NCBI GenBank assembly: GCA_038998625.1
Contig: JAWADS010000018.1
Coordinates: 1 to 6,461 of the forward strand
Origin: Candidatus Aenigmatarchaeota archaeon
GTDB taxonomy: Archaea > Aenigmatarchaeota > Aenigmatarchaeia > CG10238-14 > SCSR01
Length of the DNA stretch: 6,461 nucleotides
Direction: 5' to 3'
In this document: one piece after another, positions 2,144 through 6,087 of the stretch
How the letters are laid out: every line of letters begins with the position of its first letter
How positions within the stretch are numbered: the stretch's first letter is position 1
Translations under genes and position numbers: made by a program
Notes under the pieces: model-generated
What the model saw: the letters and a program-made list of their open reading frames with translations, nothing else
Database searches by the model: none
Told to the model about the DNA's origin: nothing

Positions 2144-4477
2144 ATGCTGTTCGAACCTAAGTTAACTGATAAAAAATGGGATATAAAAAATGAAAAAAAT
2201 ATTTTTCGCCTATGGCAAGAAAAAAAGGTATTTCGATTTAATATGAATACAAAAGCAGAAATATTCAGCATTGATACACCACCACCTTATCCCTCTGGAA
2301 GACCTTGGCACATTGGAGCTGCAGCCCACTATTCTCAAATAGATATGATAGCAAGAACTGCAAGAATGTTAGGGTTTGAAACTTATTTCCCTATAGGTAT
2401 AGATAGAAATGGCATACCTGTGGAAAGGTATACGGAAAAATTATATGGAATAAAACTTCAAGATACCCCAAGGGAAAAGTTTATTGAGCTTTGTAAAACT
2501 TCTTTAGATGATTTAGAAGCAGAGATGATTCAAATAATGAAGAACATGGGCTTATCAGGGGATTTTGATAATTATTATAGAACCGATTCAATAGAATATA
2601 GAACCTTAACTCAATCCACTTTTATAGAGCTCTGGAAAAAAGGTTTAATTTACGAGGCCACTAGACCCAATAATTTTTGTTATGATTGTGGTACAACAAT
2701 AGCAGATGCGGATGTGGTATATAAAGATTTGCCAACTCAATTAGTTTACATTAAATTTAAAATTAAAGGAAGTGAAGAGAGCATTGTAATTGCCACCACT
2801 CGACCAGAGCTTTTATGCTCTTGCCAAGCAGTAATAGCAAATCCTAGGGATGAAAGATATAAAAAATTCTTCAACAAGAAAGCAATAATTCCAATTTACC
2901 AACGAGAAGTTCCCATTATTCCTCATAGCTCTGCAGACCCCAATTTTGGAAGCGGTTTGGCAATGATTTGTAGCTATGGAGATTTAACAGACGTCAGACT
3001 TTTTAGAGAGCTAAAGTTAGATGAAATAATCGCTATAAATACACAAGGGAGACTCACAGAAGTTGCAGGAAAATATGCTGGATTAAAAGTTGAGGATGCT
3101 AGAAAAGCAATAATTGAAGATTTAGAAAAAGAGAAGTTAGTTGTAAAAAAAGAAAATATAGTGCATCACACCCCAGTTTGCGAAAGGAGTAATGTGCCTA
3201 TAGAAATTATTCCAATGAAAGAATTTTATCTGGACCAACTTAACTTCATACCAATTTTAAAAAAGATTCAAAAAAAAATAAAATTCCATCCAGAGAAGCA
3301 TAGGCAAAGGTTAATAGATTGGATGAATTCTTTAACCATAGATTGGCCTATCTCAAGAAGAAGATATTATGGCACTGAAATTCCCATATGGTATTGTGAA
3401 AATTGTAATGAGCCGCATTTACCAAAATCAGGAAGATATTATCAGCCTTGGAGGCAAAAGGCTCCATTTAAAAAATGCAAAAAATGTGGGAACAAAACTT
3501 TTATTGGTGAAACTCGAACTTTTGATACATGGTTCGATTCAAGCATTTCCCCCCTTTTTATTTCAAAATTTATGAAAGATAAAAGATTTTTCACAAAATT
3601 CTTTCCAACTTCTTTAAGACCACAGGGAAAAGACATAGTTAGAACTTGGCTTTATTACACATTACTAAGATGCTATCAGTTAACCAAAAAAATTCCTTGG
3701 GAACATGCTTGGATAATGGGTTATGGTGTGGATGAAAAAGGAGAAAAGATGAGCAAGAGCAAAGGAAATGTAATAGATCCTTTTCCGATTATAGAAAAAT
3801 ATGGCGCCGATGCCTTTAGATTTTGGTCTGCCCAAGAAGCAAGTTTAGGAGAAGATTTTCGATGCTCCGAGGAAAGAATAAAAAATTCAGGAAAATTTTT
3901 AACTAAATTATGGAACTTGGCAAGATTTATTTCTATGTTTCCTCAACCAAAAAAAGCAAAATTATTACCTAGCGACAAATGGATTTTAGCTGAATTAAAT
4001 AAAACTATAGCAGAAGCTCTGAAAGGATATGAAAATTTTAATTTTTTCATTCCTGCCACTAAAATGAGAGAATTCACGTGGAATGTTTTCGCAGATCATT
4101 ATATCGAGATGATTAAACCAAGAGCCTATGGTGATAGATTTAATAAAGCTGAACAACAAGCTGCATGGTTTACTCTACATACTTGTTTAAAAAATATTTT
4201 GGTTATATTGGCACCGATAATTCCTTTTATAACAGAATATATATGGCAAGCTCTTTACAGCAAAAAAAGCCTTCATTTGCAAAAGTTTCCAACAAAAATA
4301 AAAAGATCCAAAAATTTTGAAAGGCTAACCCCAAAAATTATTGAATTTAATTCAAAAGTTTGGAGCTTAAAGAAAAAAATGAGATTAACATTGAAAGATT
4401 CTATAGAAGCAAAAATACCTAAAGAATTAAAAATATTTGAAAAGGATTTGAGGGCTATGCATAACATTAAGCCTTAA
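2144..4477 (+). CDS. valS: Valine--tRNA ligase, archaeal type
   Basis: Class Ia motifs FSIDTPPPYPSG-x2-WHIGA (HIGH variant), editing domain ATTRPELL, DWPISRRRYYG, FDTWFDSS, RPQGKDIVRTW and KMSKSKGN; CxxC pairs; short C-terminus lacking the bacterial coiled coil; 777 aa. Confidence 0.96.
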   Translation: MLFEPKLTDKKWDIKNEKNIFRLWQEKKVFRFNMNTKAEIFSIDTPPPYPSGRPWHIGAAAHYSQIDMIARTARMLGFETYFPIGIDRNGIPVERYTEKLYGIKLQDTPREKFIELCKTSLDDLEAEMIQIMKNMGLSGDFDNYYRTDSIEYRTLTQSTFIELWKKGLIYEATRPNNFCYDCGTTIADADVVYKDLPTQLVYIKFKIKGSEESIVIATTRPELLCSCQAVIANPRDERYKKFFNKKAIIPIYQREVPIIPHSSADPNFGSGLAMICSYGDLTDVRLFRELKLDEIIAINTQGRLTEVAGKYAGLKVEDARKAIIEDLEKEKLVVKKENIVHHTPVCERSNVPIEIIPMKEFYLDQLNFIPILKKIQKKIKFHPEKHRQRLIDWMNSLTIDWPISRRRYYGTEIPIWYCENCNEPHLPKSGRYYQPWRQKAPFKKCKKCGNKTFIGETRTFDTWFDSSISPLFISKFMKDKRFFTKFFPTSLRPQGKDIVRTWLYYTLLRCYQLTKKIPWEHAWIMGYGVDEKGEKMSKSKGNVIDPFPIIEKYGADAFRFWSAQEASLGEDFRCSEERIKNSGKFLTKLWNLARFISMFPQPKKAKLLPSDKWILAELNKTIAEALKGYENFNFFIPATKMREFTWNVFADHYIEMIKPRAYGDRFNKAEQQAAWFTLHTCLKNILVILAPIIPFITEYIWQALYSKKSLHLQKFPTKIKRSKNFERLTPKIIEFNSKVWSLKKKMRLTLKDSIEAKIPKELKIFEKDLRAMHNIKP

Positions 4478-4520: not shown

Positions 4521-4589
4521 ATGCGCAAAGATGAGAAGGATGTTGAATGTAGAGCAACTAAAAAGGAAAAAATTTTGATTTTTAGCTAG
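4521..4589 (+). other. Upstream mini-ORF in the aRF1 leader, MRKDEKDVECRATKKEKILIFS* (22 aa, TAG); an overlapping second uORF at 4531-4578 reads MRRMLNVEQLKRKKF* (TGA)
   Basis: These are the first ATGs downstream of the predicted promoter, and both are out of frame with aRF1. Translation is inferred, not shown. Confidence 0.4.
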
Positions 4590-4597
4590 GGGGATCT

Positions 4598-5686
4598 ATA
4601 TTTAGCGAAAAGGAACTTCTACAATTAAGAAAATTGTTGAAAGAATTGGAAAAAATTAAAGGTAGGCACACAGAGCTAGTCTCTGTTTACATCCCTAGCG
4701 GAGCAAATTTAATTGATGTAATAAATCAACTTCAAGAAGAGAAGGGCACTGCTAGCAATATTAAATCTAAAAACACTAGAAAAAATGTTCTCTCTGCTTT
4801 GGAAAAAATAATTCAGCATTTAAAAACCTTTAGACAAACTCCCCCTAATGGTTTGGTTGTTTTTTGCGGAAATGTTTCACCAGTAGAAGGAAAAGAAGAT
4901 ATAAAACTTTGGAGCATAGAACCTCCGGAAAGAATGAATGTAAAAATTTATTGGTGCGACCAAGTGTTTGTTCTCGAGCCTTTGCGAGATTTATTTAGAG
5001 AAAGGGATGTGTATGGTTTGGTGGTATTAGATGCTAGGGAAGCTAACATAGGTTTATTGAAAGGTAAAAGAATTATTTCGCTTAAACACTTGGAATCGAC
5101 TGTTCCTTCAAAAAGCGTGAAGGGTGGTATGTCACAAATGAGGTTTGATAGGTTAAGAGATGATGCAATAAATGAATTTTTAACTAAGGTTGGCGAGGTA
5201 TCTAATCAAAACTTTCTCAATCAGAGAGATCTGAAAGGTATATTAGTAGGCGGCCCAGGTCCAATTAAGGATCGTTTTGCTAAAGAAGATTACTTAAATT
5301 ATCAGCTTAAGAAAAAAATTTTGGCAGTTAAAGATACTGGCTACACAGGAGAAGCAGGTTTGGAAGAATTGGTAAAAAGGAGTGAAGACATAATAAAAGA
5401 AACTGCTCTAGCTAAAGAAAGGGAATTACTTTCTAAATTTTTCAAAGAAATAAAAGAAGAGGGAAATGTTGTTTATGGTAAAGAAAAGGTTATGCAAGTG
5501 TTAGAAACTGGTGTGGCTGAAATATTGCTAATATCAGAAGAATTTGAAGGGGATTTGGAAGAAATCATAACTAAAGCCGAAAATTATGGAGCAAGAACTG
5601 AAATTATTTCTACAGATACTCAAGAGGGGAGACAGTTTTTGAAACTAGGGGGAATAGCAGCTTTTCTAAGACACAAATTAAGTTAA
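4598..5686 (+). CDS. prf1: Peptide chain release factor aRF1 (eRF1 family), GGMSQ variant; true start uncertain (ATA 4598, TTG 4634 or a recoded entry)
   Basis: KGRHTELVSVYIP, TASNIKS, YWCDQVF (YxCxxxF), GGPG, GLEELV and C-terminal LGGIAAFLR. The frame is open back to TAG 4583-4585, and SEKELLQLRKLLKEL upstream of the called TTG resembles the usual aRF1 first helix. SD-like AGGGGGATC lies at 4588-4596. Confidence 0.93.
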   Translation: MFSEKELLQLRKLLKELEKIKGRHTELVSVYIPSGANLIDVINQLQEEKGTASNIKSKNTRKNVLSALEKIIQHLKTFRQTPPNGLVVFCGNVSPVEGKEDIKLWSIEPPERMNVKIYWCDQVFVLEPLRDLFRERDVYGLVVLDAREANIGLLKGKRIISLKHLESTVPSKSVKGGMSQMRFDRLRDDAINEFLTKVGEVSNQNFLNQRDLKGILVGGPGPIKDRFAKEDYLNYQLKKKILAVKDTGYTGEAGLEELVKRSEDIIKETALAKERELLSKFFKEIKEEGNVVYGKEKVMQVLETGVAEILLISEEFEGDLEEIITKAENYGARTEIISTDTQEGRQFLKLGGIAAFLRHKLS

Positions 5687-5691
5687 ATAAA

Positions 5692-6087
5692 TTATTCTTT
5701 TTGTTTTTCACTAATTAAAATTGCATTGACAACTCCATCTTGCCCTGGCCGAGAGGTAACCTTTGCATTTCCTAATTCTGTTTTAATAATCGCGCCTCTA
5801 GTAATAATTTTTCTTCTCACAAAATGTGGATTAGCTGGATTTTCTATTACATCTAGAATTTTTACTTTCTTCACAACTTTATTGGCAGTATCAATAACAT
5901 TAGCATATTCACAAGCATAAGCTTTTAATTTTTTTCCTCCACCCTTCGTTCTTTTTAAAACTTTTTTATCTTTTCCAAGTTTTGTATATATAGGTAAACT
6001 ACCCAGTTCATATTTCCTTTTTTTCCTAGCCAATTTGATTATCCCGCCTGTAGCTTTTCTTCCTTTTTCACCGTGCCATACGGCCAT
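5692..6087 (-). CDS. rps8e: 30S ribosomal protein S8e
   Basis: MAVWHG..RKATGG..RKKRKYELG, RTKGG, ENPANPHFVRRKIITRGAII and VTSRPGQDGVVNA; SD-like AGTGA 4 nt before the ATG. Confidence 0.97.
   Translation of the reverse strand: MAVWHGEKGRKATGGIIKLARKKRKYELGSLPIYTKLGKDKKVLKRTKGGGKKLKAYACEYANVIDTANKVVKKVKILDVIENPANPHFVRRKIITRGAIIKTELGNAKVTSRPGQDGVVNAILISEKQKE

Follow-up and report, generated by a model that had tools for sequence, protein, structure and literature searches.

Can protein synthesis be terminated in a living cell by a class-I release factor that lacks the Gln of the GGQ motif? GGQ is the one motif common to the unrelated bacterial and archaeo-eukaryotic release factors, and archaea, bacteria and eukaryotes all methylate its Gln. 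The question is raised by the gene for the archaeal release factor aRF1 on contig C18 (JAWADS010000018.1) of a Candidatus Aenigmatarchaeota archaeon; the entire contig of 6,461 bases was analysed and is called the window below. It belongs to a host genome of 469,094 bases in 19 contigs, with 31.6% G+C, 91.8% completeness and 0.28% contamination, and whatever is reported as not found in the host genome refers to an assembly of this completeness. The catalytic loop of the encoded protein reads GGMSQ. Judged from its sequence, the protein is probably a working main class-I release factor without the canonical Gln. Loci in which the third motif residue is not Gln are termed non-Q.

The aRF1 of the window and its catalytic loop

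The gene and the motifs in question are the following.

4634..5686, + strand: aRF1 gene, 350 residues from a TTG at 4634, in a frame open since 4586
4757..4768, + strand: NIKS stop-codon recognition motif (AAT ATT AAA TCT), N42 and K44 invariant in alignment A2
4949..4969, + strand: YxCxxxF motif (YWCDQVF), Y106, C108, Q110 and F112 invariant in A2
5123..5137, + strand: catalytic-loop codons for G164 G165 M166 S167 Q168 (GGMSQ for GGQSx), from DNA and translation
5141..5158, + strand: RFDRLR, the conserved basic start of the post-loop helix, R170 and R173 invariant, R175 nearly invariant

Direct reading of the DNA and its translation agreed with the loop described in the initial annotation, with the codons GGT (5123-5125), GGT (5126-5128), ATG (5129-5131), TCA (5132-5134) and CAA (5135-5137) in the context ...PSKSVK-GGMSQ-MRFDRLRDD..., and both stop-recognition motifs are intact, as had been stated there. 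In phmmer alignments with Protein Data Bank chains, M166 pairs gap-free with the GGQ Gln of the aRF1 structures 4af1 (kGGqSaqRFaRLR) and 3agk (mGGQSQRRYERI), and the loop has the same length as in the solved aRF1 structures; in place of a GGQ with its third-position Gln the window protein carries GGM. Alignment A2, which holds 44 aligned relatives with identities down to 46%, shows no variation at G164, G165, S167, R170 and R173, and by this pattern the Gly-Gly pair and its flanks are under strong constraint through purifying selection.

The three-domain architecture and the fold are those of an aRF1. The Pfam models eRF1_1, eRF1_2 and eRF1_3 match above cut-off (65.6, 138.8 and 72.0 bits), and the NCBIfam equivalog TIGR03676 (aRF1_eRF1) scores 431.5 bits against a cut-off of 234.7. 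An AF2 (AlphaFold2) model built with the 44 relatives reached a mean predicted local distance difference test (pLDDT) score of 85.6, with a lower value of 69 for the loop block, and the best folds found by Foldseek were aRF1 (3vmf_B, template modelling (TM) score 0.74) and eRF1 (5lzt, TM 0.76); the model gives the fold and says nothing on the placement of the loop in the ribosome. Thus the window protein shares with canonical aRF1/eRF1 (TIGR03676; 3agk, 3vmf, 4af1, 1dt9) the three domains, the fold, NIKS, YxCxxxF, the Gly-Gly pair, the S..RF.RLR helix start, the loop length, the single copy and the setting among translation genes. It differs in having Met for the N5-methylated Gln and in a host genome in which the methyltransferase Mtq2 was not found, while all other tested features are present. 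Classical aeRF-1 domains carry GGQ (PMC6514570, in the text available). Since the window protein is an orthologue by descent but lacks the GGQ signature, it is classed as a variant and not as an ordinary aRF1 member.

Within the host genome the release factor is single-copy and without an alternative: each of the three eRF1 domain models matches only the window gene, and the domain search revealed no bacterial RF-1 domain. The 41 nearest genomes all contain a match to the window protein, the additional matches being Pelota-like proteins (27-38% identity) or C-terminal parts of the aRF1 gene itself. Gln as third motif residue occurs in none of the best 120 homologues from a collection of 5.8 billion proteins (54-100% identity), which comprise 103 GGMSQ, 7 GGMSA, 2 GGMSS and 2 GGFSQ loops and 6 in which GGM is followed by an intein. 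An altered genetic code was considered and rejected: in a crude count of 355 long frames in the host genome, TAA (239), TGA (87) and TAG (29) all act as stops.

Spread of the non-Gln state and distribution of Mtq2

The initial annotation had asked how loop variants are distributed over an aRF1 tree, and the survey revealed a recurrent lineage trait with M, W, F, Y or A as third residue. We drew 151 Aenigmatarchaeota genomes evenly from the phylum and probed them with a 100-residue piece spanning the loop; loops were read in 147 genomes (that of the window and the DNA of 146 others with a match), and 4 genomes gave no match. The third residue is Q in 63 genomes, W in 45, M in 35, Y in 2, A in 1 and F in 1. 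Within the order of the window (families f1, f2 and f4-f7), all loops that were read are non-Q. By family the third residues are:

Order of the window: f1, 29 M and 2 Y; f2 and f7, M; f4, 9 W and 1 A; f5, 3 W and 4 M; f6, F
Other families of the phylum: f10, f14, f15 and f22, GGW; f20, mixed, 11 W and 3 Q

For a wider set, the best 150 matches from 1.84 billion representative proteins were combined with 23 added ones, and 13 rows (fragments or no motif) were dropped. The third residue of the 160 classifiable aRF1s is Q in 123, W in 15, M in 13, F in 6, A in 2 and S in 1. On a maximum-likelihood tree of their N-terminal ~175 residues, with the loop excluded, 12 changes between Q and non-Q are needed, a count that may be inflated by the quick tree search and the short alignment; at least 6 of them are forced by branches with a Shimodaira-Hasegawa-like approximate likelihood ratio test (SH-aLRT) support of at least 95. 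Of the 80 aRF1 loci obtained by scanning GTDB species genomes, 74 are GGQ, 5 GGW and 1 GGF. Outside the phylum the non-Q state was found in six genomes of three lineages: four related genomes with GGWSQ labelled Micrarchaeota/Iainarchaeum (one of them, G164, a mixed bin labelled Bacteroidetes), a metagenome-assembled Thermoplasmata genome of ~2.0 Mb (GGFSQ) and 'Euryarchaeota archaeon UBA186' of ~1.6 Mb (GGWSQ). Leaving out the mixed bin, the other five each have one strong aRF1 match, with NIKS directly confirmed in one of them (G167); their second eRF1_2 matches are Pelota-like, except for one NIKS-less paralogue in G167. In many archaeal lineages, the loss of the canonical Gln is inherited.

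In Haloferax volcanii Mtq2 methylates Gln187 of aRF1, and deletion of mtq2 slows growth; Mtq2 orthologues are stated for all archaea and methylation of the aRF1 Gln is proposed to be general (van Tran et al., PMC6144793, as far as its available text goes). A search for the enzyme and its partner, as suggested in the initial annotation, found neither Mtq2 (best TIGR00537 score 18 bits, cut-off 87) nor Trm112 in the host genome, and the window protein is no substrate of the Mtq2-Trm112 kind, as the third-position Gln is missing and the enzyme was not found. Across the phylum TIGR00537 (HemK2/MTQ2) scores above cut-off in 60 of 151 genomes. A typical Mtq2, that of G075, has 195 residues, the NPPY signature and scores of 196.7 bits with TIGR00537 and 225 bits with NF011529, and the GGQ-bearing members of the phylum have NPPY enzymes of ~195-230 residues. 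Sorted by loop, the matches are distributed as follows.

GGQ genomes (63): Mtq2 over cut-off in 56, sub-cut-off match in 2, no match in 5
Non-Q genomes (84): Mtq2 over cut-off in 1, sub-cut-off match in 4, no match in 79

The sub-cut-off matches of the GGQ genomes G063 and G127 (~80 bits) show the NPPY signature and resemble divergent Mtq2 enzymes. The HemK-like matches of the non-Q genomes were examined as candidates for Mtq2 and rejected; they lack NPPY and look like paralogues. Apart from the one over cut-off they read NCPF, NLPF, NPPF and NPPI, and a second, sub-cut-off match in G039 reads NRPF. The GGQ genome G122 has a second match of 79 bits beside its true Mtq2, and this similar score suggests that the non-NPPY matches in non-Q genomes are paralogues. 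Corrected in this way, an NPPY-bearing Mtq2 is present in 58 of 63 GGQ genomes and in 0 of 84 non-Q genomes. Even the mixed family f20 obeys the rule, with GGQ and the NPPY enzyme in G102, G063 and G127 and 11 GGW genomes without it. Outside the phylum, Mtq2 over cut-off was found in 0 of 6 non-Q genomes (best 24-58 bits) versus 4 of 4 GGQ neighbours (125-146 bits).

The non-NPPY HemK-like proteins of the non-Q genomes include two groups, both with 62-88 bits on the MTQ2 model: one of ~370-390 residues with an N-terminal extension and NGPT or NCPF (loci L185, L191; genomes G039, G114), and one of ~230 residues with NRPF, NLPF or NPPF (loci L186, L187, L192; genomes G039, G043, G142).

A number of observations speak against a strict coupling of loop and enzyme. 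One non-Q genome, G039, has a match just over cut-off (87.5 versus 87 bits), a HemK-like protein of 368 residues with NGPT and no NPPY, and 5 of the 63 GGQ genomes are without any Mtq2 match, at 85-91% completeness. The counts from outside the phylum stem from genomes whose completeness is not given. Within the phylum, the tree built from the 100-residue fragments offers 2 independent contrasts on well-supported branches and 4 on all branches; they all point in the same direction, with p = 0.5 in a sign test. Trm112, above cut-off in 97 of 151 phylum genomes, is kept in many non-Q ones (10 of 10 in f4, 11 of 12 in f14), while 12 of 31 f1 genomes have it. Because the contrasts inside the phylum are few, we report the link as a near-perfect co-distribution over few events, joined by three outside lineages; at this level the non-Q state is tightly linked to the loss of Mtq2. 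Trm112 itself does not track the Q or non-Q state and was discarded as an uninformative second marker of the methylation system. It serves several methyltransferases (PMC6144793, in the available text), and its retention without the loop Gln fits this known service.

Compared with the Mtq2(HemK2)-Trm112 system as laid out in the accessible part of PMC6144793, 84 of 147 phylum genomes lack the substrate Gln, and NPPY Mtq2 is found in 0 of these 84. The generalisation of Mtq2 to all archaea is contradicted for more than half of the sampled phylum genomes and for three lineages outside. Full-text searches, with most subscription journals and supplements outside their scope, found no published aRF1 without the Gln and no report of Mtq2 loss in DPANN archaea. 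GGQ and DPANN names occurred together, among the search results, only in PMC6514570, where the available part names Aenigmarchaeota once, in a figure legend; among loop-motif strings the sole relevant match in the full-text literature was the statement on GGxSQ loops in the same source.

Proposed termination without the canonical Gln

We propose that stop codons are recognised through the intact NIKS and YxCxxxF motifs and that the conserved Gly-Gly loop is inserted into the peptidyl-transferase centre. Two elements would still be needed for peptidyl-tRNA hydrolysis, the GG backbone geometry and the NH group in the main chain of the third residue. In place of the N5-methylated Gln stands a bulky hydrophobic residue (Met in the window protein; Trp, Phe, Tyr or rarely Ala in relatives), and its side chain could assume the packing role of methyl-Gln in the catalytic pocket without methylation. 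Mtq2 may then have been left substrate-less and lost, or its loss may have selected for the replacement. In most lineages, part of the polar, water-positioning function probably falls to Q168, which may replace the lost carbonyl without being indispensable. Gln substitutions in bacterial release factors reportedly cause modest defects in vitro.

According to the accessible text of PMC5799190, any mutation of a Gly of GGQ abolishes release, and the Gln side chain has a packing role. Of the two options in the initial annotation, a main release factor with a replaced Gln that is possibly methylase-independent is the one upheld by the sole eRF1-type gene, its TIGR03676 score and the failure to find Mtq2 and Trm112. 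Going beyond the window, we lean towards the wider view that the GGQ Gln is dispensable for termination in living cells and was replaced at least six times independently by Met, Trp, Phe, Tyr or Ala, each time with Mtq2 loss, that the essential role of methyl-Gln would be hydrophobic packing and that the Gln two residues further on (+2) opened the way via GGQSQ. That the GGM loop still catalyses release is suggested by its conservation. Against the proposal, the Gln has been called essential in vivo and universally conserved in the available texts of PMC6144793 and PMC5799190. The GGA mutant of H. volcanii served in these texts only to test methylation.

If the proposal is true, a genome can hard-wire the packing of methyl-Gln with a hydrophobic residue. 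The GGM, GGW and GGF lineages without Mtq2 would then amount to a natural mutagenesis experiment on the role of the Gln side chain in release and on the reason for its methylation, and a route from GGQSA via GGQSQ to GGxSQ would link the classical aRF1 to the loops of VLRF-1-type rescue factors. For annotation, these essential genes would be marked as inactive by checks that rely on the motif.

The alternative that survives best, though we regard it as doubtful, is a register shift, in which Q168 is the true catalytic Gln, with the loop two residues out of register, as has been proposed for the GGxSQ loops of archaeal and actinobacterial VLRF-1 families, and Met166 as a spacer. A Gln at +2 follows the motif in 62 of 68 non-Q loops of the phylum but in 4 of 57 GGQ loops (the others having 29 Ala and 24 Ser), and in the wider set in 19 of 23 non-Q versus 20 of 82 GGQ loops; all 6 non-Q loci outside the phylum read GG[WF]SQ. 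The GGQSQ loops of the phylum genomes G044, G053, G069 and G136 resemble, and suggest, a two-Gln intermediate. The statement in the initial annotation that GGxSQ loops occur in VLRF1-type offshoots is borne out by Burroughs and Aravind 2019 (PMC6514570; PF18859), in whose available text the Gln of the aVLRF-1/acVLRF-1 GGxSQ loop is the predicted catalytic residue, and the NIKS-less aeRF1 paralogue of G167 has KKGGWSQARFQR.

The evidence against such a shift also bears in large part on the role given above to the +2 Gln. Within the phylum, 6 of 68 non-Q loops hold no Gln at all (GGxSA or GGxSS), as do 9 of the 114 intein-free sequences among the 120 nearest homologues, and lineages with GGMSA, GGMSS or GGWSA keep a single aRF1. 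GGQSQ is common in ordinary aRF1s (72 of 120; Aeropyrum pernix, Pyrococcus, Methanobrevibacter). In a paired test on the 160-protein tree, 5 supported pairs gave 3.2 independent pairs in the same direction and 0 in the opposite one, which is not significant (p at least 0.125). As to the shift itself, the loop is neither longer nor shorter than in solved aRF1s, Q168 opens the long helix of the AF2 model and does not form the loop tip, and the third position is almost always M, W, F or Y, so it is not free like a spacer. Beyond the loop, the likeness to VLRF-1 proteins consists of a weak acVLRF1 match of Pfam on the middle domain, with 41.9 bits versus 138.8 bits for eRF1_2, and whereas aVLRF-1 has an N-terminal coiled coil and no C-terminal Pelota-type domain and acVLRF-1 has no stop-codon domain (PMC6514570, as far as its text is available), the window protein has both eRF1_1 with NIKS and eRF1_3.

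A further position near the loop varies within the phylum: the aromatic residue after the loop Arg is Tyr in 60 of 68 non-Q loops and Phe in 50 of 57 GGQ loops, and the window protein keeps Phe (5141-5146). The third residue, the +2 residue and this aromatic residue change together.

Far less probable than a register shift is a hydrolytically dead factor that recognises stops only, the chain being freed later by Pth2 after splitting or drop-off in the style of Pelota-type rescue. Pth2 is present in the host genome (141 bits), and the example of Pelota-type relatives shows that proteins of this fold can function in the absence of a catalytic Gln (PMC6514570, in its accessible part). However, the GG pair and the flanking K...GGxS..R..R are strictly conserved, while Pelota and most baeRF-1 families have decayed loops according to the same text, and this conservation makes a dead factor unlikely. 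With Pelota/Dom34 the window protein shares the superfamily and the missing catalytic Gln; Pelota/Dom34 differs by its Sm-like N-terminal domain, its unconserved loop and the lack of NIKS, whereas the window protein has NIKS and a conserved loop, and the Pelota model TIGR00111 reaches 98.8 bits (cut-off 177.65) on residues 129-349 only. In addition, every protein of the cell would need this slow rescue route, and profile searches of the host genome found neither Pelota nor ABCE1 (RLI), with no Fer4_RLI match and a best NF009945 score of 24 bits (cut-off 469), so that a split-first route would be without its known machinery there. ABCE1 is usually regarded as universal in archaea. In the phylum sample it was over cut-off in 92 of 151 genomes, and several assemblies with 3 to 8 contigs are without it, independently of the Q or non-Q state.

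It is very unlikely that the window gene is a specialised paralogue, the second option of the initial annotation, with a canonical GGQ aRF1 in the unassembled ~8% of the genome. Completeness of 91.8% in 19 contigs leaves some room for such a copy; yet the check for a second, canonical aRF1 found none, the non-Q gene appears as the aRF1 of all 41 relatives and all 84 non-Q phylum genomes, some of them assemblies of 3 to 9 contigs (G073, G054, G104, G006, G020, G024), and the 0 of 120 GGQ count among the nearest homologues and the position among core translation genes likewise leave this option unsupported. A sequencing or assembly artefact, for which nothing speaks beyond the rarity of the GGM state, can be dismissed, since two or three base changes separate ATG from CAG or CAA, which already made a single error implausible to the initial annotation, none of the 120 nearest homologues has the Gln and the non-Gln state occurs in more than 100 independent assemblies from several sources.

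Neighbouring genes, gene start and inteins

The initial annotation placed the gene among core translation genes, and the adjoining valyl-tRNA ligase, S8e, LSm protein and tRNA genes agree with this. The other features of the window are:

2-946, - strand: open-ended open reading frame, weak ThyX (Thy1) match, 40.2 bits
1038-1128, + strand: tRNA gene with intron, 91 bases, Rfam tRNA 47.9 bits, anticodon not assignable by ARAGORN
2144..4477, + strand: valine--tRNA ligase, the upstream neighbour, NF009687, 938 bits versus cut-off 738
5692..6087, - strand: ribosomal protein S8e, the downstream neighbour, PF01201, 136.7 bits
6195..6428, + strand: LSm (Sm-like) protein, PF01423, 70.7 bits

The reading frame at 2-946 gave no NCBIfam match at E 1e-10 or better and is, by its Thy1 similarity, a putative divergent thymidylate-synthase-like protein.

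Upstream of the TTG at 4634 the open frame (window 4586-4636) encodes residues …IFSEKELLQLRK that resemble the N-termini of relatives, which begin with ATG 4-12 residues before the TTG of the window. No ATG, GTG or TTG is present in the open frame upstream of 4634, and the true start may be this TTG or a non-standard codon. At its other end the window aRF1 represents a short form: in relatives of ~390-440 residues the C-terminal domain is enlarged by a CxxC-bearing insertion (with CxxC pairs), which is absent from the window protein (region 5540-5686) and from relatives of 354-365 residues.

The NIKS-less paralogue in G167 (L291 on G167:C26, locus coordinates ~1093-2229) is an aeRF1-superfamily protein with a C-terminal CxxC...CxxC and the loop KKGGWSQARFQR, and the same genome also holds a NIKS-bearing aRF1 reading GGWSQ. 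The L291 protein may belong to the GGxSQ (VLRF-1-like) group, which raises the question of loop exchange between paralogues.

Finally, many aRF1 genes, though not that of the window, carry an intein at the very junction of third motif residue and Ser (GGx|C...), of which no published description was found in the full-text literature searches. It occurs in 22 of 147 phylum genomes (loci such as L091, L098, L108 and L109 carry it) and, in GGQ and non-Q genes alike, in ~55 of 160 representatives. Intein-bearing aRF1 frames of 539-936 residues are present in 12 of the 41 relatives, and Pfam intein/Hint domains are listed for six homologues (P0046, P0077, P0079, P0085, P0096 and P0119).

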